Origin: Candidatus Iainarchaeum sp.
GTDB taxonomy: Archaea; Iainarchaeota; Iainarchaeia; Iainarchaeales; CSSED10-239
Assembly (NCBI GenBank): GCA_028700115.1
Contig: JAQVTI010000001.1
Coordinates: 107,798 to 171,797 of the forward strand
Reading direction: 5' to 3'
Length of the DNA: 64,000 nt
Part shown: positions 23,312 through 59,937 of the stretch, piece by piece
Layout: the number at the start of each line of letters is the position of its first letter
How positions within the stretch are numbered: position 1 is the stretch's first letter
Made by a program: the position numbers and the translations under genes
Notes under the pieces: model-generated
What the model saw: the letters and a program-made list of their open reading frames with translations, nothing else
What the model was told of the DNA's origin: nothing
The model's database searches: none

Positions 23312-23631
23312 AACTTAAGTGAAGATATAACTTAAGAAAATATATATATATATATTATATAATTTAAATATATAATATAATCTATTATACTAAAATTAAT
23401 TTTAATTTAACATAATATATTATTAATCAATATTTGTATACCTCCTATTTATAAACAGTTTTTTAAATTGTTTACAAATTATATAATTAAATAATATATG
23501 ATAATAAATAAGTTAATTTCTAAAGACCTTGTGACCGAGAAAAAAAATATAAAAATAAATTAAATATAAATATATTTCTATTTACTATTAAGATAGAAAT
23601 TAATATAAAAATACTAATAAAATGAAAAAAT

Positions 23632-25761
23632 ATGCTTGACGATAATAATATTAAATGGTTTAAAGATATAAAAGATAGTGAAATTACAGAAATAGGATAT
23701 AAAGCACATAGACTTTCTGAATTACATAAATCACATTTCCCAATACCAAGAGGGTTTGTAATAAACTCAAAATATTATTTTAGTTTTTTTCAACAAAATG
23801 ATCTTAAAGAAAAAATCTTAGAAATTTTAAAAACAATAAATATAGATAATAAAGAGGAAATTTTAAAAAAATCAAAACAAATTAAAGATTTAATATATAA
23901 AACTAAATTTAAAGAAAAATTTATTAATGAAATTGCAAAAATGTATAATAAAATTGGAGAATCACAAATAGGATGGCTAAATAGTAAAGTCGATGAATAT
24001 GTTGCAATTAGAGTATCTATAGTTTCAGAAAAGCACCCCCCTAAAGAACTAGATTTTATTGAAAAATATAGTGGTTTTCTAAATATTAAAGGAATTAACC
24101 AAATTATGGAATGTATTAAAGAAATATGGGCATCTTCTTTTGATCCAGAATTAATTATTGAAAAAAATAAAAAAAATATTTCAGATAATGATTTTGCTAT
24201 CGCAATAATTATTCAAAAAATGATAAATGCACCAATTTCAGGAATTATGAAAACAACAAATGATATTGGAGAAAAAAATACAATTATTGAAGCAATATAT
24301 GGTTTTGGAGGAAGTGGTATAATTTGCCAAATAACTCCAGATAATTATGAAGTAAATAAAAAAAATATAGAAATTATTAGAAAAACACAATCAAAACAAG
24401 AATGGATGTTAAAAAGAATAGTTGGGAAAACAACAAAAGTTATAATTGATGAAAATAAAAAAAATAAACCTAAATTAGAAAATCACGATATTAAAGAGCT
24501 TACATCTATTGGAAAAAAATTAGAACTTTTTTTTGGAAATCCATTATATGTAGATTGGGTAATTGATAAAGCAGATATATATATTCTTAGTGCTGATCCA
24601 ATAGATCCTTCTAAAAAAAAAATTATTAAAAAAAACACAAAAAAAATAGAACATGAAGGATTCCAAGATAAAATGGACTCTTTTAAAAAAGATGTAATTA
24701 TCCAAGGAATTCCTGTATCCCCAGGAATAGCAAACGGAGTTGTAAAAATTATAAAAAATAAATTAGATTTAGAAGAAATTGATTCAGAAACAATTTTAGT
24801 TTCAAAAATGACAAGCCTAGAAATGACTCCATATGTTAAAAAAGCAAAAGCTGTAATTACAGATGCAGGAAGTACTATTTGCCATGCAGCATTAATTTCA
24901 AAAAAATATGATATTCCATGTATAGTTCATACAGAATATGCAACAAGTAAATTAAAAGATGGACAAAATATACAAGTAAATGGAAATAATGGAAAAGTAT
25001 ATAATCTTACAGGAGTAAAAATTATAAAAATAAAAAAAGAAGAAGAAAAAGAAATAAAAATGATTGAAAAAGAAAGCGAGATTCCAAAAACATTTACACA
25101 AATAATTGTAAAAATTGATGAAATTGAAAAATTAAGAGAAATAAATAAAGAAGACATTAATGGAATATATATATGTACACAAAATCTTTTTACAAAAGAA
25201 GAATATATAGAAATAATTAAAGATAAAGAAATATTAATTAAAAAAATTAGATCAAAAATTGATTTAATTAAAAAAATAACAGATAATAAAAAAATATATT
25301 ATGAAATAAATCTCCATCAAAAAGACTTAGTTTATGAAAATATTTCTAATTATGAATTAGAAGCAATTTTTGAAGAAAATAATGAAAATATAAAAATTAT
25401 TTTAGACAATATAAAATCTAAAGAAGAAATTATCCCAATAGAACAGAATACAATAAATAAAATTGGAATAAAAATAGATTCATTAAATACAAATATAATT
25501 TATTCAATATTAGAAAATATAGAAACAATTATAATTAATACAGATAATTTTGATAAATCTAAAAATGTTGAAATTACAAATATTTGTAAAGAAAATAAAA
25601 TTAAAAAAATAATTAATATTAATAAAAATAATAAAAAAAATATAAAAGAATATATTGAATCAAAAATAAATGCAATAATTATAGACTATAATGAAATTAA
25701 TCTAAAAGAAATAGTCTATAAAAAAGAACAAGAGATGTTAAAAGATTTATTATCAATTTAA
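23632..25761 (+). CDS. PEP synthase / pyruvate phosphate dikinase-like protein with ATP-grasp N-domain and phospho-His swivel domain, lacking the PEP/pyruvate-binding TIM-barrel
   Basis: N-terminus HFPIPRGFVIN (PPDK_N-like). Mobile domain with the catalytic His context GSTICHAALISKKYDIPCIV. C-terminal 250 aa are low-complexity K/I/N/E-rich with none of the PEP-utilizers_C motifs. Confidence 0.5.
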   Translation: MLDDNNIKWFKDIKDSEITEIGYKAHRLSELHKSHFPIPRGFVINSKYYFSFFQQNDLKEKILEILKTINIDNKEEILKKSKQIKDLIYKTKFKEKFINEIAKMYNKIGESQIGWLNSKVDEYVAIRVSIVSEKHPPKELDFIEKYSGFLNIKGINQIMECIKEIWASSFDPELIIEKNKKNISDNDFAIAIIIQKMINAPISGIMKTTNDIGEKNTIIEAIYGFGGSGIICQITPDNYEVNKKNIEIIRKTQSKQEWMLKRIVGKTTKVIIDENKKNKPKLENHDIKELTSIGKKLELFFGNPLYVDWVIDKADIYILSADPIDPSKKKIIKKNTKKIEHEGFQDKMDSFKKDVIIQGIPVSPGIANGVVKIIKNKLDLEEIDSETILVSKMTSLEMTPYVKKAKAVITDAGSTICHAALISKKYDIPCIVHTEYATSKLKDGQNIQVNGNNGKVYNLTGVKIIKIKKEEEKEIKMIEKESEIPKTFTQIIVKIDEIEKLREINKEDINGIYICTQNLFTKEEYIEIIKDKEILIKKIRSKIDLIKKITDNKKIYYEINLHQKDLVYENISNYELEAIFEENNENIKIILDNIKSKEEIIPIEQNTINKIGIKIDSLNTNIIYSILENIETIIINTDNFDKSKNVEITNICKENKIKKIININKNNKKNIKEYIESKINAIIIDYNEINLKEIVYKKEQEMLKDLLSI

Positions 25762-31138: not shown

Positions 31139-31705
31139 ATGAATCAAAAAAGTGAAATAATATTTTATGGAAGAGGTGGACTTGGAGCAAAAACAGCAGC
31201 ACAAATTCTTGCAGAAGCAGCAAATATAGAAGAAAAAAATATCCAAGCTTTTCCAGAATATGGTCCAGAAAGAAGAGGAGCACCTGTTAGATCTTTTGTT
31301 AGAATATCAGATAAACATATAAGAGTGCATGAACCAATTTTAAATCCAGACTACATAGTTGTAATTGATTCAAACTTATTTGATGTTATTGAAAATTTAA
31401 AAGAATTTAATGGAACTTATATAATTAATACAAATAAACCTAAAGATTATTTTAAAAAAATTCTTAAAAATAAAAAATTTATTTTAATAGATGGAACTAA
31501 GATTGCTTTAGAAAATCTAAAAATAAATAATCCAAATATAGTTTTGATTGGAGCTTTAATTAAACAAAGTAAAATTATTAAATTAAGTTCTGTTGAAAAA
31601 ATAATTGAAGAAGAATTTACAAAAAAAGGAAAAGAATATTTTATTAAGCCTAATTTAAAATGTTTAAATGAAGGTTATAATTATAATTTTAAAAAGAAAA
31701 AATAA
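31139..31705 (+). CDS. porG: pyruvate:ferredoxin oxidoreductase gamma subunit
   Basis: IFYGRGGLGAKTAAQILAEAA start typical of Por gamma. First gene of the porGDAB order. Confidence 0.8.
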   Translation: MNQKSEIIFYGRGGLGAKTAAQILAEAANIEEKNIQAFPEYGPERRGAPVRSFVRISDKHIRVHEPILNPDYIVVIDSNLFDVIENLKEFNGTYIINTNKPKDYFKKILKNKKFILIDGTKIALENLKINNPNIVLIGALIKQSKIIKLSSVEKIIEEEFTKKGKEYFIKPNLKCLNEGYNYNFKKKK

Positions 31706-31727: not shown

Positions 31728-32042
31728 ATGGAAAATAAAAAAAAATCTAAAGAACTACCAATTGGAAGTATACTTCCAGGAGGAACTTCAACTAAAAACA
31801 AAACAGGTTCTTGGAAAGATAAAGTTCCTGTTTGGGATGAAAAAAAATGTATTCATTGTATGATATGTTATAATAAATGCCCAGAAAACTGTATTCTTGC
31901 ACAAGTTAAAGCAGGAAAAATTAAAAGAACAAAAACAGATTTAGAATACTGCAAAGGTTGTGGAATTTGTGCAAAGGTTTGTCCAGTTGGAGCAATAACT
32001 ATGAAAGATGCAAGTGAAGTTGAAAAAGAAAATAAAAAATGA
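31728..32042 (+). CDS. porD: pyruvate:ferredoxin oxidoreductase delta subunit (2x[4Fe-4S] ferredoxin)
   Basis: CIHCMICYNKCP and CKGCGICAKVCP. Confidence 0.85.
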   Translation: MENKKKSKELPIGSILPGGTSTKNKTGSWKDKVPVWDEKKCIHCMICYNKCPENCILAQVKAGKIKRTKTDLEYCKGCGICAKVCPVGAITMKDASEVEKENKK

Positions 32043-32056
32043 ATTTGTGAAAAATT

Positions 32057-33217
32057 ATGAAAAATAAAAAAATGGCATTAACAGGTGGAGAAGCAATCTC
32101 ATATGCTTTAAAACAAATTAATCCAGATGTTGTGGCGATGTATCCAATAACTCCACAAACTCCTATTATTGAAAGATATTCAAAATATGTTGCAGATGGA
32201 GAAGTAGATACTGAACTAATTAGAGTTGAATCAGAACACTCTGCACTTTCAGCCACAATCGGAGCTGCTGCTTCAGGGTCTCGTGCAGTTACAGCAACAG
32301 CTTCTCAAGGTTTACTTTATATGTTTGAAGTTTTATCTGTTGCTTCAGGACTAAGACTTCCAATTGTTATGCCTGTTGTAAATAGAGCAATATCTTCTCC
32401 AATAAACATACACTGCGATCATTCAGATTCAATGTCTGCAATTGATCAAGGTTGGATGCAAGTATATTGTCAAAATGCACAAGAAAGTTATGAAATGACT
32501 TTATTTGCAACTAAGCTTGCAGAAAAAGTAAACTTACCTATTATGGTTTGTCAAGATGGATTTATAACTTCCCATAATCTAGAAAACATAGAAGTTTTTA
32601 ATGATAATAAAGTTAAAAAATTTATTGAGGACTACAAACCAGCATATAATTTATTAGATGTAGATAAACCTATATCAATTGGACCTTTAGCCTTAACAGA
32701 TTATTATTTTGAAATAAGAGCACAATTATTTGAAGCTTTTTCAAAAATTAAAAAAGAATTTAAAGAAATTTCAAATGAGTTTAAAGAAACTTTTGACATG
32801 AAAATTAATTTTTTAGAAAAATATAAATCAAATGATGCAGAAATTATTTTTATATGCTTAAGCTCAACTGCTGAAAGTATAAAAGATGTAATTGATACTT
32901 ATAGAGATAATGGTTATAAGGTAGGACTTGTAAGACCAGTTTTATTTAGACCATTTTTTTATGAAGAATATGCAAAAGAATTAGAAAATGCAAAAACAGT
33001 AGTTGTTTTAGATAGATCTGAAGGTCCAGGAAGCCATGCACCTTTGTTTAAAGACATAGTTATTTCTTTAACAAACATAGAAAAAAGACCAGAAGTTTTT
33101 TCTTTTGTTTATGGACTTGGTGGAAGAGAGATTTATCAAAAAGATATATGTAAATTATTAGATACTTTAATCTCTGGTAAGCTTCCAAAAAGTAAATATA
33201 TTGGACTTAGAGAATAA
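32057..33217 (+). CDS. porA: pyruvate:ferredoxin oxidoreductase alpha subunit
   Basis: ALTGGEAISYALKQINPDVVAMYPITPQT N-terminal signature of POR/KOR alpha. Confidence 0.85.
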   Translation: MKNKKMALTGGEAISYALKQINPDVVAMYPITPQTPIIERYSKYVADGEVDTELIRVESEHSALSATIGAAASGSRAVTATASQGLLYMFEVLSVASGLRLPIVMPVVNRAISSPINIHCDHSDSMSAIDQGWMQVYCQNAQESYEMTLFATKLAEKVNLPIMVCQDGFITSHNLENIEVFNDNKVKKFIEDYKPAYNLLDVDKPISIGPLALTDYYFEIRAQLFEAFSKIKKEFKEISNEFKETFDMKINFLEKYKSNDAEIIFICLSSTAESIKDVIDTYRDNGYKVGLVRPVLFRPFFYEEYAKELENAKTVVVLDRSEGPGSHAPLFKDIVISLTNIEKRPEVFSFVYGLGGREIYQKDICKLLDTLISGKLPKSKYIGLRE

Positions 33218-33236: not shown

Positions 33237-35672
33237 ATGAATAATTCAGAACTTGCAATAAAGATTAATGAAAATAAAAAATTAGTTCCAGGACATAGAA
33301 CATGTGCAGGATGCCCTATTGCTGTGATATTAAGAACAGCACTTGCTTCAACTGATAAAAAAATAGTTGTAGCTTCAGCTACTTCTTGTGCAGAAGTAAC
33401 TACTACAATATATCCTTATACATCTTGGAATGTTCCTTGGATGCATTCTGTTTTTGCAAATGCAGCTGCAACTATTTCAGGAATTGAAAGTTCTTATAAA
33501 GCTTTAAAGAAAAAAGGCAAAATAAAAAAAGATATTAGATTTTTAGCTTTTGGTGGAGATGGTGGATGTTACATTCCAAAAACAAAAATATTAACTACAG
33601 AAGGTTTTAAAAATGTAGAAAAAATAACTACAAAAGATTTAATTTGGTCAATAAATCCAAAAAATAAAACTTTAGAAAAATCAAAAATAAAAAAAATGCA
33701 TAAATATAATTATAATGAAAAAATAATTTCTGTAAATCACAATTTTGTACATTTTGATGTATCTTTACAACACAACATTCCAATTTATAATAAATTAAAT
33801 AACAAAATAGAAGCTATTAAAGCACATGAATTATTAAATTATGGTAGAAGTGATAAAATAAATATAATAACAGGTGATTTAAACTGGAAAGGTAAAAATA
33901 AAAAATATTTTGAATTACCAAAAATTAAATACAACAAAAATTCAAATAATAAAAAGGACATACCTAAAATAAATATGAAAATTTGGTTAGAATTTTTTGG
34001 ATATTGGATATCTGAAGGACACCTTTCAAAACATAATAGTAAAAGAAATATATACAACACTTTTATATCTCAAACAAAAAAAGCAACTATTAAAAAAATA
34101 GATAAATGCTTAAAACAAACTAAAATAAATTATTGGTATAATAAAGATAGATTTTGTATAAGTAATCAAAAATTATGGGTATATTTAGAACAATTTGGAA
34201 AAGCAAAAGACAAATATATTCCTCAAGAATTTAAAGAATTATCAAAAGACTATTTACAAATATTATTAAATTCATTAATGGAAGGAGACGGCACAATAAT
34301 TAAAAGACTTAAAAGCACAGCTTATTCTTATAGTACAATTTCAAAAAAATTAAAAGACGATGTAATTGAAATTGCACTTAAATTAGGATATAGAGTGCAT
34401 TTAGATGAAAGAACTAGAAAAAACAGAAAAGAATACAGTATATCTTTTTCAAATTACAAACCAACAAGATTAGCAAACCTAAGAAAAAAACACATCACAA
34501 ATTATAATTATAAAGGAAAAATATATTGTCCAGAATTAGAAAAAAACCACATCATGGTTATTGAAAAAGATGGGCGAATAAGTTTAAATATGAATAGTTT
34601 CGACATTGGACTTCAAAGTCTATCAGGAGCATTAGAAAGAGGACATGATTTTACATATATATGTTATACAAACGAAGGATATATGAATTGTTTATCTACA
34701 GATTCACTAATTATGACTGAATCAGGATTAAAACAAATTACAGAAATTAAAAAAGGAGAAAAAGTTTGGGCTTTTGATCAAAAAACATATCAACCTGTTT
34801 TAAAAAAATGCACAGGTGTATTTGATAATGGTAGAAAAAAAGTATATGAAATTGAAACTATACATCAAAATATAAAAGCAACATCTAATCATCCGTTCTT
34901 AGTATTAAAAAGAAATAAAAATAAAGAAAATGAATTTGTTTGGAAAACAGTTACAGAACTTAAAAAAGATGACGAAATTGTAACTCTTAAAAAGAAATTT
35001 TATAAAAACTTAGATATAAATAAAAATCTAAAAAATGATTATAAAATACAAAATAATCATTATTTTATAATAAGAAAAATAAAAAATATAATTCCTAGAA
35101 AAATAGAACAAACATTAGATTTAAGAGTTGAAGGAGAACACAATTTTATTGCAAATGGAATTGTTGTTCATAACACAGGAAATCAGAGATCTTCAGCAAC
35201 ACCTTATGGAGCATCAACAACTACAACTCCTTCTGGAAAAGTTTCTTTTGGTAAAGAAAAATTCCAAAAAGATCTTGCACAAATTATAATTGCACACAAC
35301 ATACCTTATGTGGCAACTGCAAATCCAGAATTCCAAATTGATATGTATGAAAAAATGAAAAAAGCTTTTGAAACAAAAGGACCTTCATTTATTTTAATTT
35401 TTGCAGCATGCCCTACAAACATGAAAGCAGATCCATCAGAGACATTTACAATTAGTAAAATGGCTACTGAGACAAATTACTTCCCACTTTATGAATATGA
35501 GAATAGAAAATATAAAATTAATTATAAACCTTTTAAAAAAGTTCCAATTGAAGAATTTTTAAAACTACAAACAAAATTTAGAGAAGTTTTAAAAGATAAA
35601 AAAGAAATTAAAATCATACAAGAACACGTAGATGAAAAATGGAATAGTATTCTAAAAAAGGAAGAAAAATAA
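33237..35672 (+). CDS. porB: pyruvate:ferredoxin oxidoreductase beta subunit (TPP-binding) interrupted by two inteins
   Basis: Extein pieces CAGCP, AFGGDGG / SFDIGLQSLSGALERGHDFTYICYTNEGYMN / TGNQRSSATPYGAS match the PorB TPP motif. Excising 343 aa and 162 aa leaves about 306 aa, the normal PorB size. Start taken at the Met after the porA stop. Confidence 0.8.
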   Translation: MNNSELAIKINENKKLVPGHRTCAGCPIAVILRTALASTDKKIVVASATSCAEVTTTIYPYTSWNVPWMHSVFANAAATISGIESSYKALKKKGKIKKDIRFLAFGGDGGCYIPKTKILTTEGFKNVEKITTKDLIWSINPKNKTLEKSKIKKMHKYNYNEKIISVNHNFVHFDVSLQHNIPIYNKLNNKIEAIKAHELLNYGRSDKINIITGDLNWKGKNKKYFELPKIKYNKNSNNKKDIPKINMKIWLEFFGYWISEGHLSKHNSKRNIYNTFISQTKKATIKKIDKCLKQTKINYWYNKDRFCISNQKLWVYLEQFGKAKDKYIPQEFKELSKDYLQILLNSLMEGDGTIIKRLKSTAYSYSTISKKLKDDVIEIALKLGYRVHLDERTRKNRKEYSISFSNYKPTRLANLRKKHITNYNYKGKIYCPELEKNHIMVIEKDGRISLNMNSFDIGLQSLSGALERGHDFTYICYTNEGYMNCLSTDSLIMTESGLKQITEIKKGEKVWAFDQKTYQPVLKKCTGVFDNGRKKVYEIETIHQNIKATSNHPFLVLKRNKNKENEFVWKTVTELKKDDEIVTLKKKFYKNLDINKNLKNDYKIQNNHYFIIRKIKNIIPRKIEQTLDLRVEGEHNFIANGIVVHNTGNQRSSATPYGASTTTTPSGKVSFGKEKFQKDLAQIIIAHNIPYVATANPEFQIDMYEKMKKAFETKGPSFILIFAACPTNMKADPSETFTISKMATETNYFPLYEYENRKYKINYKPFKKVPIEEFLKLQTKFREVLKDKKEIKIIQEHVDEKWNSILKKEEK
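33567..34595 (+). mobile_element. intein 1 in PorB (343 aa) with LAGLIDADG homing endonuclease domain
   Basis: Inserted right after the GGDGG of the TPP motif. Starts CYIPKTKILTTEGF (block A) and ends ..ISLNMN, followed by Ser (+1). Carries two LAGLIDADG motifs (FFGYWISEGH and LLNSLMEGDGTI). The penultimate residue is Met rather than His. Confidence 0.65.
34689..35174 (+). mobile_element. intein 2 in PorB (162 aa mini-intein, no endonuclease)
   Basis: Inserted after YMN of YICYxNEGYMN. Starts CLSTDSLIMTESG and ends GIVVHN, followed by Thr (+1): textbook Hint-domain termini. Confidence 0.8.
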
Positions 35673-35686
35673 AAAAGGTTTTAATT

Positions 35687-36394
35687 GTGCCAAACATCTC
35701 AACACATGCAAAAATAATTAAAGAAGTTTATTCTAAAAATAAAAAATTTAATTTAGATTATTTAGTATCTGGAAGTATATTTCCAGATTATTACTATTTT
35801 TTAAAATATCAAAAATATAATGACCCCACTAATTTACTACATTCTAAACTTGCAAAAAGATACTCAGAAAAACTAATTAAATCTGCAAAAAACAAAAAAG
35901 AACTTTCTTTTGCAATAGGTGTTTATTCACACATTATAGTTGACCAAAAAGTTCATGCATATTTAAGAAAAAACAAACTTGAAAAAAACATAAATCACCT
36001 AGTAATTGAACATTTTTTAGAGATAAAACAACATACACCTGTTAACAAAATATTAATTTGTAAAAATTTAATTAAAAGAACTATTCCTAAAAAATATTAT
36101 ATACATTTAAAAAAAATAAATTTATTTAATTCAATTAAATTTATTTTATTTAATAAAACTATATTTTTTTTAATAAAACAAAAATACATAAATAAAAAAA
36201 GATCTAAGAAAAAAAGTATATGGAATTTAATTTTAAGAATAGGTTATAAAAGACCACTTAAAAGAGTAGAGTTTACAGATATAGAAAAAATAGTAAATCC
36301 TAATTTTAAATTAAAAAAACATATAAAAAATATAGAAAAAGAAATAAATTTATCTAAAAAAGAAATAATTAAAAAAATCAAAGAATTAATTTAA
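35687..36394 (+). CDS. hypothetical protein, weak resemblance to Zn-dependent phospholipase C-like (H-rich N-terminus)
   Basis: ISTHAKIIKEV ... SGSIFPDYYY. Basic C-terminus. Low confidence. Confidence 0.25.
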   Translation: MPNISTHAKIIKEVYSKNKKFNLDYLVSGSIFPDYYYFLKYQKYNDPTNLLHSKLAKRYSEKLIKSAKNKKELSFAIGVYSHIIVDQKVHAYLRKNKLEKNINHLVIEHFLEIKQHTPVNKILICKNLIKRTIPKKYYIHLKKINLFNSIKFILFNKTIFFLIKQKYINKKRSKKKSIWNLILRIGYKRPLKRVEFTDIEKIVNPNFKLKKHIKNIEKEINLSKKEIIKKIKELI

Positions 36395-37573
36395 TAATTC
36401 TTTAACATCTCTAATCATTTGTAATTCTTCATTTGTTGGAATAACTAAAACTTTAATTAAACTATCTTCTGATGAAATTATTAATTCATTTGAATTATTT
36501 TTACTTTCATCTAACTTAAGTCCTAAAAAACTAAAATGATCTAAAACAAGTTTTCTTAAAAAAGGAGAATGCTCTCCAACTCCTCCTGTAAAAACAATTA
36601 CATTTATTCCTTTCATCTCAGAAATGTATGCACCAATTATTTTAATTATTCTATTTACTAAAATATCATTTGCAAGAGTACAATCTTTACAACCTTTAAT
36701 TGCATTTTCTTCAATATACCTATGATCACTTGATTGCTTAGATATTCCTAAAAGCCCAGATTGTTTATTTATTAATTTTTTAATATCTTCTTTAGAATAA
36801 CCATTTTCTAATAAAAATAAAATTATTTCAGGATCAAAACTTCCAGATCTAGTTCCCATTGGAAGACCATCTAAAGGAGTAAAACCCATAGAAGTATCAA
36901 AACTTTTACCATTTTTAATAGCACATATACTTTGACCATTCCCTAAATGACATGTAATTATATTTATTGAATCATAATCTTTTTCTAAAATCTCACATGC
37001 TTTTCTTGAAACAAACTTATGAGAGGATCCATGAAAACCATAACTTCTAATTTTAAATTTTTCATAAAGCTCTATTGGAAGAGCATATAAATAATTTTCT
37101 AAAGGTATAGTTGAATGGAATGCTGTATCAAAAACCCCAAAATGCTTTGTAGATTCTGGCAAATGACCTTTTAAAATTTCAACACATTTTAAATTTACAG
37201 GATTATGAAGCGGTGCTAAAAAATTATATTTTTTTAAATCTTCTAAAACCTCAGAAGTAAGCTCTGTTGTTTTATTATATTTTTCAGCTCCATGAACAAT
37301 TCTATGAACAACATAATTAATTTCAAAAAAAGAAGTAATAATATTATTTTCTATTAAAAAATCTAAAAGATTAGAAACAGCTAAATCATGTTCTAAAATA
37401 TCAAACTCATCTTTTAATTTTTTATCATTAAATTTAATTTTTCTAAGACAAGTTCTACCAGAAACTCCAATTCCATCAAATTGTCCAACAATTAATGTTT
37501 TTTCATTTTCAAAATCGGCTAATTCAAATTTTAAAGAACTACTACCTGCATTAATTACTAAAATATTACTCAT
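36386..37573 (-). CDS. ackA: acetate (or short-chain acyl) kinase
   Basis: MSNILVINAGSSSLKFEL N-terminal signature. ASKHA fold motifs (VHRIVHGAEK, GFHGSSH). Confidence 0.8.
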   Translation of the reverse strand: MSNILVINAGSSSLKFELADFENEKTLIVGQFDGIGVSGRTCLRKIKFNDKKLKDEFDILEHDLAVSNLLDFLIENNIITSFFEINYVVHRIVHGAEKYNKTTELTSEVLEDLKKYNFLAPLHNPVNLKCVEILKGHLPESTKHFGVFDTAFHSTIPLENYLYALPIELYEKFKIRSYGFHGSSHKFVSRKACEILEKDYDSINIITCHLGNGQSICAIKNGKSFDTSMGFTPLDGLPMGTRSGSFDPEIILFLLENGYSKEDIKKLINKQSGLLGISKQSSDHRYIEENAIKGCKDCTLANDILVNRIIKIIGAYISEMKGINVIVFTGGVGEHSPFLRKLVLDHFSFLGLKLDESKNNSNELIISSEDSLIKVLVIPTNEELQMIRDVKELLN

Positions 37574-40766: not shown

Positions 40767-40899
40767 ATTACAAATTATAAATATTATATATATAATATAT
40801 TAAAATATATTTATAAATATATTTATGATAAAGAAAGTAAAATAAATATAATAAAGATAAAACAAATAATTTAAATATATATTGTAAAATAAGATATTT

Positions 40900-43044
40900 A
40901 TGTGTTCGATTGCAGGTAGCTTTAATTTAACTCAAAGCATCAAAAATTGTTATGAAATGAATGTTTTAATGCAAAAAAGAGGTCCTAACCACACATCTTT
41001 TGCACACATCAAAGATAATAAAGTATATATTTATGAATATACAGATAGATTTGAACAAAACAATACAATAAGCCATAATTTACTTGCAATTGTAGGAAAC
41101 ATATCTCAACCTATAAAATATAAAAACACATTAATTACATCTAATTGTGAGATATATAATTGGAAAGAAATTTGTAAAAAAGAAAAAATAAATGCAAGAA
41201 ATGACTCAGAGATGTTAATTAAACTTTTTGAGAAAGAAAAAGTAAATAAGAAAACTTTAGAAAAACTAGATGGAGCATATGCATTTTGTTTCTGGAAAGA
41301 AAACAAAATTTATCTTGCAAGAGATATTTTAGGAGTAAAACCTTTATGGTTTTCATATGAGAACAAAAGTTTTTGTTTTGCATCAGAAAAAAAAGCCTTA
41401 GAAAAAATTGGACGAGAAAAAATAGAATTTTTAGATCCAAGAAAGATTTTAATTTATGATATTAATAAAAATCTAATTAACTATAAAAAAAGAGAATTTA
41501 TAAAAATTAAAGAAAATAAAAATGGTTTAGAAAAAAATAAAAAAATAATTCAAGAAAAATTAGAACAAGCAATTATTAAAAGAATTCCAGAAAAAAAACT
41601 AGCACTTCTTTTTAGTGGAGGAATAGATTCTACAATAATTGCAATGATTCTTAAAAAACACAAAATAGATTTTACAGCATACTTTGCACATCTTAAAGGA
41701 TATAATGAAAATAAAGATTTAGAATATGTTAGAGAGATTGCAAAAAAATATAAAATTAAATTAAAAATTAAAAGTTTAGATTATAAAGACTTAGAAAAAA
41801 ATATTAAACAAGTTGTAAAAACTATTGAATCAACTAACCCTATTAAAATAGGAGTTGGCTTACCTATTTATCTTGCAAGTAAACTTGCTTCAAAAGATAA
41901 AAATAAAGTTATTTTTTCAGGACTTGGTTCTGATGAGATTTTTGCAGGATATAATAGATTTAAAGAATCTAAACATATTCAAAAAGACACACTTAATCTA
42001 CTTTATCAAATACATGAAAATGATTTAAATAGAGACGACTCTCTTACAATGGAAAACAGTATTGAGTTAAGACTTCCTTTTTTAGATTTACCTTTAATTA
42101 AAGAAGTAATTGGAATTGAAGATAAACAAAAAATTAACTCTGAAGAAAATAAAATTATCTTAAGAGAGATTTCAAAAGAATATAGTCTAGATGAAAAATA
42201 TTTTAAAAGAAAAAAAGTTGCTGCACAATATGGTTCTGGGTTTGATAAAGGAATAATTAAACTTTCAAAAGAAAATAAATTTAAATCAAAATCAGAATAT
42301 CTAAAAACTTTTTTAGAAAAGCAGAATCTTAATTTAGGATGTTTATATTCTTCTGGAAAAGACTCTAATCTTTCTTTAAATATTCTAAAAAAACAAAATT
42401 ATAAAATAAAATGTTTAATTTCTATTATTCCAGAAAACAAAGACTCATACATGTATCAAACTCCTGATTTAAAAATTTTAAAAGCACAATCAGAATGTAT
42501 AGAAATACCTTTAGTTTTAGGAAAAACAAAAGGTGAAAAAGAAAAAGAATTAATTGATCTTAAAAAAGTAATTAAAAAAGCAAAAGATAAATACAATCTG
42601 CAAGGAATTGTCTCAGGTGCATTATTTAGTAACTACCAAAGAGAAAGAATTCAAAACATATGTAATGATTTAGGTTTAAGATTGTTTTCACCTCTATGGA
42701 ATATAAACCAAGAAAAAGAAGTTTTGAAATTAATAAAAGAAAAATTTGATTTTAGAATTGTTAAAATTGCTGGATATGGACTAAATAAAGATTGGTTTTT
42801 AAGAAAAATAGATTTAAAAGCTTTAGAAGAACTTAAAAAACTAAATAAGAAATATGGTTTCAATGTAGCAGGAGAAGGTGGAGAATTTGAAACTATTGTT
42901 TTAGACTCACCTGATTTTAAAAAAAAAATAAAAGTTATAGACTACAAGATAAATTTAGAAAATGAATTTACTGGTGAAATTGAAATTAAAAAAATAAAAA
43001 TAGAAGAAAAAAGAAAAACTAATTCTAACAAGTACAACCAATAG
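40900..43044 (+). CDS. asparagine synthetase-like glutamine amidotransferase (Ntn Cys2 + PP-loop) fused to a C-terminal Dph6/MJ0570-type (DUF71, ATP_bind_4) PP-loop domain
   Basis: MCSIAG N-terminal nucleophile; SGGIDST PP-loop at about residue 235. The C-terminal approximately 230 aa carry a second PP-loop SSGKDS and the EGGEFET motif characteristic of diphthine-ammonia ligase-type enzymes. Confidence 0.6.
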   Translation: MCSIAGSFNLTQSIKNCYEMNVLMQKRGPNHTSFAHIKDNKVYIYEYTDRFEQNNTISHNLLAIVGNISQPIKYKNTLITSNCEIYNWKEICKKEKINARNDSEMLIKLFEKEKVNKKTLEKLDGAYAFCFWKENKIYLARDILGVKPLWFSYENKSFCFASEKKALEKIGREKIEFLDPRKILIYDINKNLINYKKREFIKIKENKNGLEKNKKIIQEKLEQAIIKRIPEKKLALLFSGGIDSTIIAMILKKHKIDFTAYFAHLKGYNENKDLEYVREIAKKYKIKLKIKSLDYKDLEKNIKQVVKTIESTNPIKIGVGLPIYLASKLASKDKNKVIFSGLGSDEIFAGYNRFKESKHIQKDTLNLLYQIHENDLNRDDSLTMENSIELRLPFLDLPLIKEVIGIEDKQKINSEENKIILREISKEYSLDEKYFKRKKVAAQYGSGFDKGIIKLSKENKFKSKSEYLKTFLEKQNLNLGCLYSSGKDSNLSLNILKKQNYKIKCLISIIPENKDSYMYQTPDLKILKAQSECIEIPLVLGKTKGEKEKELIDLKKVIKKAKDKYNLQGIVSGALFSNYQRERIQNICNDLGLRLFSPLWNINQEKEVLKLIKEKFDFRIVKIAGYGLNKDWFLRKIDLKALEELKKLNKKYGFNVAGEGGEFETIVLDSPDFKKKIKVIDYKINLENEFTGEIEIKKIKIEEKRKTNSNKYNQ

Positions 43045-48257: not shown

Positions 48258-50402
48258 TTAAAAACTATCCTGTTCAATAGGTTTTAATAAACCTATTTTT
48301 GGTTCATAAACATCTCCAATTTTTTTAAGTTTAGAAATTGCTTCTAAAACCTTATCTCTATTATGTCCTTCTTTTTCAGCAAAATCTAAAACTTCCTTTG
48401 TAGGAATTGGATTTCCATTTTCACAAAGATCTTTTATATATCTTAAAACAGTTTTTACAAGATTTCTTTCAGATTGAGATTGACCTGTTGCTAAAATATC
48501 AATATCTATTTTTCCAGTTTCAACATCTAAAGCAGTTTGTTCTAAAGAAGTTTTAAAAATTCTAATTGCTCTTTGAGCATCATCTGGGTCAATTATTTTT
48601 TTTAATTTTATTTTTGCACTAGCTTCAGATAATCTAATTAATCCTTCTAACTGTCTTGGAGTTGCTGCAAAACTTTTTTGTTTTCGCCCAAGATCTCTTA
48701 AACTAATATAATAATCTAAAATAATTTTTGAAGCTTCAGCAGAAAGAATAGGTTTTATGTTCTGTCTTGAATAAGCAACATATTTTTTATAAAGTAAAGG
48801 ATCTATTTCTGGAAGAATATTTCTATTTGCTTCATCATATTCTTCTTTATCTATAGAATTATCATTTGTTGAAAGTTTTTGTGCAAAAGTTTGTGTATTT
48901 AAAATATGCTTTGCAATACTTATATCTTGATCTCTTTTTAAATTATCAGGAATAACAAAATATAAATCAAATCTTGAAATTAAAGAAAAAGGAAGATCTA
49001 TTTGTTCAATTGGATTTTTAAAAGGATCAAATCTATTATATTTAGGATTTGCAGCAGCAAGAATAGAACAATCTGCTTTAAATTTACTATATAATCCAGC
49101 TTTTGAAACAGAAACAGTAGATTGAGCCATTGCTTCATGAAGAGAACTTTTATCTTCAGGACTTATTTTATCAAATTCATCAATTAATGCAATCCCACCA
49201 CTTGCTAAAATAACAGCACCAGCCTTTAAAGTCCAACCACCTTCTCCAAATTCATCTTTTACTGCTGAAACTGTAAGCCCTGCTCCTGAAACTGTTTTTC
49301 CTGCAACATAAACAGATTTTGGTGCTAAAATATTTGTATATTCTAAAAGTTTAGATTTTCCTGTAGATGGATCACCAACTAAAAGAATATGAATATTCCC
49401 TCTTAATTTTTGTTTAGCTGCTTCTTTTTTAACACCACCAAACATTTGAAGAGTAATTGCTTCTTTTACAACTTCATGACCCCAAATATTAGGGGCAATA
49501 GATCTTGCTAAAACATCATAAATATCATTTTTTTTAGAAAGTTCTAAAATTTGTGTTTCTTCTTCAGGATCAATGGTTAATTCATCATATTCTTGATCTA
49601 TTTTTTCAATATGATTTGCAACAATATATTTCCCATAAATATTCATATCTCCTTTTGGAGGTCTTAATTTTAAAACACCAGTAACTAAAATTTTATCTCC
49701 TGCAGAACATTTATTAACAAGATCTTGAGAAAGATAAACATCTATATTACTTGCTTGATCAGAACCTTTTAAACTTTCTAAAGGCTCTTGCATTTGAATT
49801 TTTTGATAATCTATAAAAGCAGATTGCTCTAAATCAATATCAAATTCTCTAGACTTACACTCCCTACATAAAACAGGTTTTGAAAGCTGTTGGGATTTTT
49901 GTTCGATATCAATTGCAGTACCACATTTTCTACAAACAAAATGAGCTGTAGTTAATTTTTCTAATCTTTCAGTAATTAATCTAATTGTTCCTTCTGCAGA
50001 AATTAATTTTGTTAAATGATCAGAACCAATATCTCTTATTGAAACCCTATATTCTTTTGGAAGATTATAAAATCTAATAATAGGTTCAAACTTTTCTTCA
50101 ATTTCAGAATCTAAAATTCCAATATCTATTTTTTTAATTGCAGCATTTGCTGCTTCAATTATAATTTGAGGATTATCTATTAATCTTTCAGAAATATTTA
50201 AATCAAATTCTTCTAATTTTTTATAATCTATATCAAGACTTATTTTTTTAGGATAATTAGAAGCAAGAAACTCAATTTCTCTTTTATATATATCATCAAA
50301 AAATTCTTGCAAAATATCTATATAACTATCAATTGCTAAATCTTTTGGCTTTCCAGTATTTGTATCTTCAAGAGAATCAAATTCTTTATCTAAATCAATC
50401 AT
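48258..50402 (-). CDS. mcm: MCM replicative helicase
   Basis: Zn finger CRKCG...CRECKS. Walker A GDPSTGKS, Walker B IDEFDK, arginine finger SRFDL. No intein. Confidence 0.9.
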   Translation of the reverse strand: MIDLDKEFDSLEDTNTGKPKDLAIDSYIDILQEFFDDIYKREIEFLASNYPKKISLDIDYKKLEEFDLNISERLIDNPQIIIEAANAAIKKIDIGILDSEIEEKFEPIIRFYNLPKEYRVSIRDIGSDHLTKLISAEGTIRLITERLEKLTTAHFVCRKCGTAIDIEQKSQQLSKPVLCRECKSREFDIDLEQSAFIDYQKIQMQEPLESLKGSDQASNIDVYLSQDLVNKCSAGDKILVTGVLKLRPPKGDMNIYGKYIVANHIEKIDQEYDELTIDPEEETQILELSKKNDIYDVLARSIAPNIWGHEVVKEAITLQMFGGVKKEAAKQKLRGNIHILLVGDPSTGKSKLLEYTNILAPKSVYVAGKTVSGAGLTVSAVKDEFGEGGWTLKAGAVILASGGIALIDEFDKISPEDKSSLHEAMAQSTVSVSKAGLYSKFKADCSILAAANPKYNRFDPFKNPIEQIDLPFSLISRFDLYFVIPDNLKRDQDISIAKHILNTQTFAQKLSTNDNSIDKEEYDEANRNILPEIDPLLYKKYVAYSRQNIKPILSAEASKIILDYYISLRDLGRKQKSFAATPRQLEGLIRLSEASAKIKLKKIIDPDDAQRAIRIFKTSLEQTALDVETGKIDIDILATGQSQSERNLVKTVLRYIKDLCENGNPIPTKEVLDFAEKEGHNRDKVLEAISKLKKIGDVYEPKIGLLKPIEQDSF

Positions 50403-57538: not shown

Positions 57539-58114
57539 TCATACATTAATATAGTCTTTATGAATATACTCTTTTACAAATAATAAAACATCTTTATTTG
57601 TAAATTGATTTATACTCTTTTTATGATCTTCAAAAAACAGTTCATAACAATATCTAAGATATGAAGGATTAAGAGTTTTTACTTGGTTAAAAAATTTAAC
57701 TTTTAACTCTTTAGAAATATCTAATTCTTTTATTTTTTTATCTAATTTATATTTTAAGATATTTCCTTGTCTATCAGATCTATTAACATAGATTTCTGCT
57801 TCACGTTTTTCTATTTGTGCATATTTTAAAAAATGTTCAACAATTTTTATATATTCTTTTTGAGTTAGTTTTTTCATTAACTCTTTTGTAGTCATGTTTT
57901 TTTTATCTCTTAAAAGAATATTATGCATATGAAAAACAATATCAGAATCTGATAAAAATTTATCTTTTTGTTTAATTAGTTCTCTTAGTTTAGGGTCTAC
58001 TACTTTTTGATTTAGTTTCTTTGTAGACCTATTTCTAGTTATTTTAAAACTTTGTCTTTTTTCCTTAAATGTATAAGGTTTATTTGTTTTTGGATTTATT
58101 TTTCTAAAAGGCAT
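57539..58114 (-). CDS. hypothetical basic protein
   Basis: ORF only. Starts 2 nt after the right direct-repeat copy. Confidence 0.3.
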   Translation of the reverse strand: MPFRKINPKTNKPYTFKEKRQSFKITRNRSTKKLNQKVVDPKLRELIKQKDKFLSDSDIVFHMHNILLRDKKNMTTKELMKKLTQKEYIKIVEHFLKYAQIEKREAEIYVNRSDRQGNILKYKLDKKIKELDISKELKVKFFNQVKTLNPSYLRYCYELFFEDHKKSINQFTNKDVLLFVKEYIHKDYINV

Positions 58115-58216
58115 AAATAATTAACTCTTTTATATTATAACAAATATATAAAAGATAAATAAATTTATAAATAGTAATTTTTATTAAAAAAATAAATTTT
58201 TTTAAAGAAAATTCAT

Positions 58217-58960
58217 TTAATTAATTTTATTTAAAATAAACTTACAAATAAGTTTAAAATCTAATCTATATTTTTTTAAAATATAATGATTTGTTGAATT
58301 ATTATACAATTTTATTTTATAATCATCATTTATTATATTATTTAATTTATTAATAACTATAGATTTATCTTTTATTGGAAAATTATTATCTTTTAGTATA
58401 ACATAGATATCATAAATATCTTTACCTTCATCTCTATTTATAAAAGCTTTAATTTTTTGATAAAATAATTCTTCTAAACTATAAACATTAAAATAAGATA
58501 TATCAAAATCAACAAATCCAGGATAAATTATTTTTTTATTAATATCAGGCATATCTTTATTATTTAATCTAAATTCAAGCATAATTTTATCTTTTTGATT
58601 AATCTCATTAATATACTGAATATCAAATCTAATTGTTTTATTCATGATTCTTGGTTTATTTACAATATAAGATTTCAAATATTTTTTTAAAATTAAATAA
58701 ATATCTTCTTTTAAAATATTTATTTCTTTTTTAGAAAAAATATCAAAATCAATATCTTCAGAAAATCTTTTAAATTTATTAAAATAAACTCTATTTAAAG
58801 AAGTTCCTCCTTTTAATATTATATTATCAAATTTATTCTCTAATAATTTAAATATTTTTGAAATTTCTTTATCTTTTATAATATAATTTGTAGATAATCC
58901 AGTATCTAAACAAATTTTTCTAATAAGTTTTATATCCATTAATTTAATACCACCAATCAA
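58217..58960 (-). CDS. abiEii: AbiEii/AbiGii-family nucleotidyltransferase toxin (type IV TA, DUF1814)
   Basis: IILKGGTSLNRVYFNKFKRFSEDIDFDIF matches the LKGGTAL...RFSEDIDF signature. Confidence 0.65.
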   Translation of the reverse strand: MIGGIKLMDIKLIRKICLDTGLSTNYIIKDKEISKIFKLLENKFDNIILKGGTSLNRVYFNKFKRFSEDIDFDIFSKKEINILKEDIYLILKKYLKSYIVNKPRIMNKTIRFDIQYINEINQKDKIMLEFRLNNKDMPDINKKIIYPGFVDFDISYFNVYSLEELFYQKIKAFINRDEGKDIYDIYVILKDNNFPIKDKSIVINKLNNIINDDYKIKLYNNSTNHYILKKYRLDFKLICKFILNKIN

Positions 58961-59732
58961 TTATATTTTTTTCACCTAAATTATCTTTTAGTTTCCATTT
59001 ATCTATATATTTTGATTTTTTATTATTTATATTTAATAAATAAGTATTAGATTTGTCTTGAGATAATAAATATTTTAAAAAATAATTAGGTATTTTTAAA
59101 TTTGTATTTTTAAGTAAAATATCTAAAATATAGCCAGTAATTTGATTTTGTCTTTTACTAGAGTATTTTTTATAAATTAATAATAATTTATTCCAATTTA
59201 TTTTATTTGAACCTAAATATATAGCTTTAGATAAAATAGAATAACTACCTATATATTTAAATTTATTAAAACAATCAAATATAGTTTTTTCTAAAGAAGA
59301 AATATAAATATTATCTATTCTTATAAAATCATTATAAAAATTAGTATTTATATATTTTAGATTATATTCATATAATTTAATATTTTTAGATTTTTTATTA
59401 GTAGAAATATATATGTTGAAAGGATGGTAATCTATTAAACCATAATAAAATAAAGCAGATGAAAAAGAAATATATCCAGGATATAAATTAGTTGCTATTT
59501 CAAAAAGATCATTTATTGAAAAAATATCTTTTTTAATATAATTATTTTTTTTAAGATTTAATAAATACCCTTTATCTTTTAATTGTTTTAATAAAAAATT
59601 AATCTTATAATTAGAATAATCTTTAAAAGCAGATTTTAAATCATTGTTTTTTAATATATTATTCTTTTTTTTAGAATCTATATAGTTATACAAATAATTT
59701 TCATTATTTGTTAATTGGTTATTTTTTTGCAT
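58944..59732 (-). CDS. abiEi: AbiEi-family antitoxin / transcriptional regulator
   Basis: YPGYISFSSALFYYGLIDYHP matches the AbiEi_4 motif YxSxxSALxxHGL. Overlaps the downstream toxin gene by 17 nt. Confidence 0.6.
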   Translation of the reverse strand: MQKNNQLTNNENYLYNYIDSKKKNNILKNNDLKSAFKDYSNYKINFLLKQLKDKGYLLNLKKNNYIKKDIFSINDLFEIATNLYPGYISFSSALFYYGLIDYHPFNIYISTNKKSKNIKLYEYNLKYINTNFYNDFIRIDNIYISSLEKTIFDCFNKFKYIGSYSILSKAIYLGSNKINWNKLLLIYKKYSSKRQNQITGYILDILLKNTNLKIPNYFLKYLLSQDKSNTYLLNINNKKSKYIDKWKLKDNLGEKNIIDWWY

Positions 59733-59937
59733 ATAACATAATTATATTACATAACCTTTAAAAAATTAACCAAAAAATATTTATTTAAAATATATTAAAA
59801 ATAAATAAAATTTTAAGAAAAAGAATAAGTTTTAGATTTTTAAAATTTTTTTAAAAATAAAAAAAAGAAAAGAAAGAAAAGGAAATAAATCCTTTATCTT
59901 TAACGGTTTAGATTTAATCTATTTTATTTTCAAACAT

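Follow-up and report, generated by a model that had tools for sequence, protein, structure and literature searches.

Two putative class 1 inteins flanking the thiamine-diphosphate loop of PorB in a Candidatus Iainarchaeum contig

The DNA considered here is a stretch of 64,000 nucleotides (the window) from Candidatus Iainarchaeum sp. (GenBank assembly GCA_028700115.1, contig JAQVTI010000001.1, positions 107,798 to 171,797 of the forward strand), part of an AT-rich archaeal contig whose GC content lies between 15 and 32% across the regions of the window. Four genes on the same strand, in the order gamma-delta-alpha-beta (porG-porD-porA-porB), make up an operon of the Por/Vor type of 2-oxoacid:ferredoxin oxidoreductases (Table 1). 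The last of these genes, porB, carries two inteins, A and B, that divide the beta subunit into three exteins. Such a pair of inteins had been proposed in an earlier note made from the sequence of this DNA alone, and it is borne out here: PorB aligns without gaps once the two segments are removed, and both segments possess the Hint fold and the sequence blocks of inteins. Conserved PorB insertions devoid of Hint blocks, which the earlier note named as the outcome that would count against it, are not what the ortholog alignment reveals, as the orthologs lack the segments and the segments carry the Hint fold and blocks.

The porB reading frame may be opened either at a TTG at 33201, giving 823 codons, or at an ATG at 33237, giving 811 amino acids, and ends at 35672 in both cases. 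The TTG lies 36 nucleotides upstream of the ATG, and the extension overlaps the last codons of porA. The ATG was chosen because residue 1 of the homologues aligns with residue 13 of the extended query. The coordinates first proposed for the gene are therefore retained, while the accompanying length of 823 amino acids, which counts from the TTG-extended start, is corrected to 811. After both splicing events, carried out in silico, the mature PorB has 306 amino acids. The NCBIfam hidden Markov model (HMM) for PorB, NF008819, matches the precursor in three stretches and the spliced protein in one; with 364 bits over model positions 6-296 of 300 it is the best of all models for the spliced protein, followed by VorB with 317 bits. 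Membership of the beta family of Por/Vor-type oxidoreductases is secure, whereas pyruvate specificity is what we infer, because 364 bits falls short of the equivalog cutoff of 405.

The junctions of intein A read GGDGG/CYIPK...SLNMN/SFDIG and enclose 343 amino acids, and those of intein B read GYMN/CLSTD...IVVHN/TGNQR and enclose 162 (slashes mark the splice points); these sizes and junctions are exactly those of the earlier note. Only 31 extein residues separate the two inteins. Ligation is expected to produce FGGDGG-SFDIGLQ at site A (FGGDGGSFDIGLQ) and EGYMN-TGNQR at site B. The spliced protein aligns with a PorB of known structure (PDB 9bt4_C, E 3.5e-78) with no gap across either junction, and likewise with the beta subunit of oxalate oxidoreductase (5c4i_C). 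The residues that follow the inteins (+1), Ser for A and Thr for B, also occupy these positions in intein-free PorB.

Both sites adjoin the residues that hold the cofactor. In the Sulfolobus tokodaii enzyme StOFOR, Gly-Asp-Gly 89-91 and Asn118 bind the Mg2+ of thiamine diphosphate (PMC5020499). By the same spacing of 28 residues after the Asp, the motif Asn of the PorB encoded in the window would be that of YTNEG. Intein A sits within this GDG...N motif, two residues past the Asp. Intein B sits five residues past the motif Asn, in the conserved YMN/TG segment, and so at the edge of the motif; the earlier note, which had placed both inteins inside it, was right about A only. The complete GGDGG...TNE motif is regained after splicing in silico. 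As the two inteins flank the cofactor loop, it is reasonable to infer from their positions that the unspliced precursor should be catalytically inactive.

Table 1. Features of the por operon, of the porB inteins and of other genes in the window (positions are those of the window; aa, amino acids).
Feature	Position	Strand	Evidence or remarks
porG/porC, gamma subunit of 2-oxoacid:ferredoxin oxidoreductase	31139..31705	+	Pfam POR 1e-34; TIGR02175 PorC_KorC 191 bits, above cutoff
porD, delta subunit (2x[4Fe-4S] ferredoxin-like)	31728..32042	+	Pfam Fer4 families; TIGR02179 PorD_KorD 83.6 bits, above cutoff; best equivalog PorD_Arch
porA, alpha subunit	32057..33217	+	Pfam POR_N 2.5e-74 and PFOR_II; best NCBIfam model PorA_Arch 453 bits, below cutoff 550
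porB precursor, coding sequence, 811 aa and stop	33237..35672	+	open reading frame; starts of homologues; spliced product gives one PorB stretch
N-extein, 110 aa, ends FGGDGG (GDG of the thiamine-diphosphate/Mg2+ motif)	33237..33566	+	splice-junction reading; alignment; GDG role from StOFOR (PMC5020499)
Intein A, 343 aa, full-size class 1 with nested LAGLIDADG endonuclease	33567..34595	+	junctions; AlphaFold 2 model; Foldseek; family conservation
Endonuclease region of intein A, about aa 106-305, boundaries approximate	33882..34481	+	Pfam LAGLIDADG_3; secondary structure of the model; matches to I-DmoI, I-SceI and I-OnuI
LAGLIDADG motif 1, WLEFFGYWISEGH, catalytic-position Glu150	33984..34022	+	Glu in 76/79 and Gly151 in 79/79 family members
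LAGLIDADG motif 2, LLNSLMEGDGTI, catalytic-position Asp241	34263..34298	+	Asp241 in 79/79 and Gly242 in 78/79 family members
Middle extein, 31 aa, SFDIGLQSLSGALERGHDFTYICYTNEGYMN, cofactor-binding loop including the motif Asn (TNE)	34596..34688	+	junctions; alignment
Intein B, 162 aa, canonical class 1 mini-intein without endonuclease	34689..35174	+	Pfam Intein_splicing; TIGR01443, TIGR01445; 1mi8
C-extein, 165 aa, begins TGNQRSSATPYG	35175..35669	+	junctions; alignment
Phosphoenolpyruvate (PEP) synthase/pyruvate phosphate dikinase (PPDK)-like gene	23626-25758	+	upstream of the por operon
235-aa open reading frame	35687-36394	+	zinc-dependent phospholipase C family, Pfam 3.9e-13
Acetate kinase	36386-37573	-	Pfam 2.4e-130
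718-aa open reading frame	40888-43041	+	glutamine amidotransferase, asparagine synthase and C-terminal diphthamide-synthase-like (Diphthami_syn_2) parts
MCM helicase	48261-50402	-	714 aa; MCM_OB, MCM P-loop and lid domains
S-layer-like gene, 865 aa	59941-62535	-	

The key residues of intein A are Cys1, S66-x-x-H69 in block B, Cys321 at F:4, His328 at F:13, the ending Met342-Asn343 and the +1 Ser. Conservation was assessed in a set of 79 relatives from species-representative genomes. Cys1, the Thr or Ser at B:7, the His at B:10, the Cys at F:4 and the terminal Asn are present in all 79, each of which has Ser, Cys or Thr at +1. Among inteins generally, Asp is the commonest residue at F:4 and Cys the next, according to the review by Mills, Johnson and Perler (PMC4031507). 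Block G of intein A is that of class 1 in its Asn343 and +1 Ser, and departs from it in having Met rather than His before the Asn. The penultimate residue is Gly in 75 of the 79 family members (95%) and Met in the remaining four (5%), which are the intein of the window and its three closest relatives (L001, L002 and L003); all 16 inteins at site A of PorB end in Met-Asn or Gly-Asn. The same review puts the share of functional inteins whose penultimate residue is not His at about 5%, and splicing without the His is established. The Met-Asn ending is thus a trait of the family and a variant already known within class 1. It is not peculiar to this gene, being a variant of the Gly-Asn found throughout the family.

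Structure prediction and a profile built from the Hint part of the family alone were used for the fold of intein A, because searches with its sequence alone missed the Hint part. The AlphaFold model, computed from an alignment of the 16 PorB site-A inteins, has a mean predicted local distance difference test score (pLDDT) of 91 and a predicted template modelling score (pTM) of 0.90. Foldseek aligns it with endonuclease-bearing inteins, namely TliVMA (7qsu, 2e-15), PI-SceI, PI-PfuI and PI-PkoII, with E-values ranging to about 2e-12, while its central part matches nucleases of the I-DmoI type (I-DmoI, I-SceI and I-OnuI). Structural matches confined to the Hint domain are 6zgq and 2lwy, the best being the class 3 split intein AceL NrdHF (6zgq; root-mean-square deviation 1.6 Å over 100 columns). 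The Hint-only profile finds the KlbA intein of Mja (2jmz, E 8e-8), and in this alignment Cys321 falls on the F:4 Asp and His328 on the F:13 His. Assignment of block F through a profile of the site-B inteins was also tried on the C-terminus of intein A and rejected, since that HMM alignment is out of register; the KlbA alignment was used for this reason.

The nested LAGLIDADG endonuclease attributed to intein A in the earlier note is confirmed by these fold matches and by Pfam LAGLIDADG_3 (2.5e-09, 37.7 bits, cutoff 22.5). The endonuclease retains two LAGLIDADG motifs with acidic catalytic residues, together with the LAGLIDADG pseudo-dimer fold (alpha-beta-beta-alpha-beta-beta-alpha). Across the 79 family members the Glu of motif 1 is kept in 96% and the Asp of motif 2 in 100%. 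In the site-A intein of L002/P0001, the nearest double-intein relative of the PorB in the window, Lys replaces the conserved Glu of motif 1 (GYWISKGH, against GYWISEGH in the window), and for this reason its endonuclease may be inactive.

Intein B shows blocks A, B, F and G that can all be read directly, with Cys1, T-S-N-H in block B, LDLRVEGEH in block F, the ending His-Asn and a +1 Thr. Pfam Intein_splicing (PF14890) recognises it with 63 bits (2.7e-17, cutoff 35.8), the N- and C-terminal intein models TIGR01443 and TIGR01445 both score above their cutoffs, and along its entire length it can be aligned with the mini-intein of Ssp DnaB (1mi8, E 4e-12). Its ending is the rule at this site, as 106 of 107 site-B inteins end in HN/T and one in MN/T. 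In a comparison with the 372-aa site-B intein of L002/P0001, the 162 residues of intein B show 80% identity, and a block of about 210 residues from the middle of the larger intein, bearing the LAGLIDADG endonuclease, is missing from it. Because of this missing block, intein B is, by sequence comparison, a natural endonuclease-deletion derivative of a full-size site-B intein.

Every one of the best 120 database hits to the precursor is a PorB protein that carries an intein at site A, at site B or at both. At least 120 PorB protein clusters are thus occupied at these two sites, and 121 proteins were examined, that is, the 120 hits and the protein of the window. Site B is occupied in 107 of the 121, by 83 full-size inteins and 24 minis of 140-240 aa, and site A in 16, the window included. 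Source names of the hits include Nanoarchaeota, Woesearchaeota, Aenigmarchaeota, Iainarchaeum, Diapherotrites, Micrarchaeia and Omnitrophota, and some hits have already been labelled 'beta subunit/intein/homing endonuclease' by the pipeline of the Joint Genome Institute (JGI). Alleles with two inteins recur (L002, L054, P0116 and P0125); P0125, for example, is 42% identical overall and has the same layout as the window, a full-size A with a mini B. PorB inteins are therefore common in uncultured small-celled archaea and in some bacteria, and the window provides a new example of a familiar element. Of the tiny genome mentioned in the earlier note, the DPANN names of the relatives and the GC content of 15-32% are the only signs.

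No paper on inteins in PorB, or in any other 2-oxoacid:ferredoxin oxidoreductase, was found in full-text literature searches. The main text of a large intein survey (Novikova 2016) mentions neither pyruvate nor ferredoxin. A survey of multi-intein genes (PMC10643990) covers only two genomes of DPANN archaea and lists no multi-intein gene in them. PorB thus seems to host inteins abundantly and yet to have gone undescribed in this role, so that the earlier remark that it is not a standard one holds for the literature searched and fails for the sequence databases, where it is very common.

The family of intein A extends far beyond PorB, with 3,187 representative clusters at E ≤ 1e-30, a number that rises to 8,144 at E ≤ 1e-10. 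Its hosts include the MCM of cultured Methanoculleus species and carbamoyltransferase-like, sugar-nucleotide decarboxylase-like, radical-SAM, NrdD-like and GltB-like proteins; further hosts include a D12 methyltransferase, a family B polymerase, glycosyltransferases and a Mu-type portal protein. The MCM helicase gene of the window is intein-free, in contrast to the MCM of many Methanoculleus genomes. Close relatives of intein A are found in P0130, a portal protein of a Mu-type phage, and in P0121, a D12 N6-adenine DNA methyltransferase. These two hosts hint that viruses or mobile elements may help to spread the family.

Occupancy differs among close relatives of the PorB in the window: L001 carries intein A alone, L002 combines A with a full-size B, and in the window A is accompanied by a mini B. 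Between distant hosts the inteins are often more similar than the exteins, as in a comparison of an Omnitrophota allele with an archaeal one (identity 0.65 against 0.47) or of the window with L003 (0.63 against 0.49). Such variable occupancy, combined with intein identities above those of the exteins, is the pattern expected of homing elements. Near-identical site-A inteins were also seen in PorB of Omnitrophota (L025, L026, L028 and L032; one of them a single-cell genome) and of DPANN archaea (L022, L054 and L071), which suggests transfer between archaea and bacteria, unless the bins of the metagenome-assembled genomes are contaminated.

Ratios of nonsynonymous to synonymous substitution (dN/dS) were computed against the two closest alleles; with dS around 1 and so near saturation, the values are rough. 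The Hint parts of intein A give 0.07-0.12, its endonuclease 0.27-0.32, intein B 0.23 and the exteins 0.15-0.22. At the level of the codons compared, these ratios show purifying selection on both inteins and on the exteins.

Taken together, these results make it very probable that the porB gene of a four-subunit pyruvate/2-oxoacid:ferredoxin oxidoreductase operon has been invaded by two class 1 inteins, each independent of the other, at hot-spot sites flanking the thiamine-diphosphate/Mg2+ loop. The gene would be translated as a precursor of 811 aa, in which an N-S acyl shift at Cys1 of each intein would be followed by a transesterification in which the +1 residue, Ser for intein A and Thr for intein B, takes over the N-extein. 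Cyclisation of the terminal Asn and an O-N shift would then complete the peptide bond, and the two excisions would leave a PorB of 306 aa with an intact GDG...N loop. The endonuclease of intein A probably still drives homing into intein-free porB alleles by cutting the sequence that encodes GGDGG/S. Intein B would be the endonuclease-less descendant of a full-size site-B intein and, having lost the endonuclease, would now be an immobile passenger inherited vertically.

Several points weigh against this interpretation. The Pfam Hint models miss the splicing domain of intein A (none at E ≤ 0.01), its sequence alone matches no PDB chain (E ≤ 0.1), and the near-saturated dS blunts the estimate of selection. 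The penultimate Met, rare even within the intein's own family (4/79), could slow cyclisation of the Asn. The literature, as far as found, holds no experimental splicing or endonuclease activity for any PorB intein. Finally, the exact protein of 811 aa has no record in a public collection, so that a single assembly stands behind the allele. A chimeric assembly was nevertheless rejected as an explanation, because the four double-intein PorB alleles named above are independent of this one.

An alternative is that one or both inteins have decayed and no longer splice, leaving porB as a pseudogene or its precursor dead, with acetyl-CoA made by another route. The Met of intein A in place of His or Gly, the lost endonuclease of intein B and the fact that no second porB was seen in the 64-kb window could all be read in this way. 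The reading is nevertheless very improbable, as the frame of 811 codons is intact in DNA of 15-32% GC, in which stop codons arise easily, every catalytic position is kept in both inteins, and dN/dS is well below 1 in inteins and exteins alike. The Met-Asn ending is shared by four diverged alleles (those of the window, L001, L002 and L003, whose inteins are 63-75% identical) and has thus persisted under selection, while natural mini-inteins are known to splice unimpaired after loss of the endonuclease (PMC4031507). The Cys at F:4, the penultimate residue other than His and the class 3 intein AceL NrdHF (6zgq) as best Hint-only structural match might instead point to a class 3-like route in intein A, in which the block F Cys and not Cys1 would make the first attack on the N-terminal junction. 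Class 3 inteins are marked by the absence of the N-terminal nucleophile and by the combination of Trp at B:12, Cys at F:4 and Thr before the terminal Asn. In the intein A family, Cys1 is invariant (79/79), B:12 is Ile in the window, Met, Val, Ile or Leu in 78 of the 79 and Phe in one but never Trp, and the residue before the Asn is Gly or Met, not Thr; the F:4 Cys that does fit is the second commonest residue at that position among inteins generally (PMC4031507). Class 3 as a classification of intein A was excluded on the first three of these positions, and a class 3-like route is accordingly exceedingly improbable.

A different function for the same cysteines would be a conditional switch, in which inteins responsive to redox state or cofactor hold an oxygen-labile enzyme inactive until conditions become reducing, possibly by way of a disulfide that joins Cys1 to the F:4 Cys in intein A. 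With the inteins on either side of the cofactor loop the precursor should be inactive, both cysteines are invariant in the intein A family, and there is a precedent in the disulfide trapping of an intein in the oxygen-sensitive MoaA of Pyrococcus abyssi, described in a review (PMC10663303). The same pair of cysteines, however, occurs in family members inserted in MCM, carbamoyltransferase-like, sugar-nucleotide decarboxylase-like, DNA methyltransferase and phage portal hosts, which means that it is no adaptation to PorB. Close relatives differ in which sites are occupied, as expected of a selfish element, and the exteins have no Cys at -3 or +1 that would serve the known traps. Such a switch is consequently very improbable, and it is similarly improbable that the two inteins have been co-opted as a post-translational gate allowing splicing, and hence activity of the pyruvate:ferredoxin oxidoreductase (PFOR), only under reducing conditions, for example by a Cys1-F:4 Cys disulfide lock like the trap of the MoaA intein. 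If true, a gate of this kind could explain the wide retention of PorB inteins in anaerobic DPANN archaea and Omnitrophota.

Several known systems come close to these inteins. The endonuclease-bearing inteins TliVMA (7qsu/7qss), PhoVMA (7qst), PI-SceI (1vde), PI-PfuI (1dq3) and PI-PkoII (2cw7) resemble intein A in having a Hint domain split by a double-motif LAGLIDADG endonuclease, with Foldseek template modelling (TM) scores of about 0.55-0.63 at a sequence identity of only 10-14%. Intein A differs from these inteins in its thiamine-diphosphate-dependent host (theirs are ATPases or polymerases), in ending with Met-Asn rather than His-Asn and in its F:4 Cys. The MCM inteins of Methanoculleus (HEAMEQQ/CYDDETEVLT...CGN/SISVAKAG) belong by profile to the same family as intein A, at 27-38% full-length identity. 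They have in common with it the start CY[DS]xxTE[IV]LT, the block F [VI]YC...NH and both LAGLIDADG motifs, and differ in host gene, in site and in the Gly-Asn ending, whose Gly is replaced by Met in the clade of the window. The KlbA intein, which is the best PDB sequence match for the Hint part of the family, has blocks B and F in register with it; KlbA, however, belongs to class 2 (Ala1), has Asp at F:4 and lacks an endonuclease (PMC4031507), whereas intein A has Cys1 and an F:4 Cys.

For intein B the nearest parallel is the Ssp DnaB mini-intein (1mi8, 6frg), which has the same blocks and the same position of the linker left by removal of the endonuclease. Its endonuclease was deleted by engineering and its host is a helicase, whereas intein B, hosted by PorB, lost its own naturally (about 210 aa, compared with L002/P0001). 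Several inteins in one conserved domain, with occupancy varying among alleles, are also described for haloarchaeal MCM (PMC10643990) and for the DnaB of Mycobacterium smegmatis (PMC6195587). Those multi-intein hosts are replication ATPases, in contrast to PorB, a central catabolic thiamine-diphosphate and Fe-S enzyme in which no more than 31 codons lie between the two sites.

The inteins described so far reside mostly in ATPases of replication, repair and nucleotide metabolism. PorB stands apart as a central catabolic enzyme with two heavily used sites flanking its cofactor-binding loop, and it extends to another cofactor motif the rule that inteins target the most conserved sequence of the active site. 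It is a major intein host in the poorly surveyed DPANN archaea and Omnitrophota, and both annotation and the reconstruction of metabolism should therefore reckon there with porB products of 650-1000 aa, which ought not to be taken for broken or fused genes. The family of intein A, with its Gly-Asn or Met-Asn ending and its F:4 Cys, offers many natural variants for the study of splicing without a penultimate His, and the compact intein B is a possible tool for protein engineering. The understanding of intein mechanism is unchanged, as both inteins are mechanistically ordinary members of class 1.

Elsewhere in the window, no further intein was detected when both intein HMMs were run against all open reading frames of the six frames, and no ribosomal RNA gene was found in the 64 kb. 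The 235-aa reading frame of the zinc-dependent phospholipase C family follows porB directly, and acetate kinase is encoded on the other strand, a short way downstream of the por operon. Together, PFOR, acetate kinase and the PEP synthase/PPDK-like protein suggest fermentative generation of ATP from pyruvate to acetate. The window also encodes the A and B subunits of topoisomerase VI, MCM and an S-layer protein. The GC content reaches its minimum of 14.7% at 58001-60000, adjoining or overlapping the end of the S-layer-like gene. Finally, the 718-aa reading frame appears to be an unusual fusion of the three kinds of domain given in Table 1.

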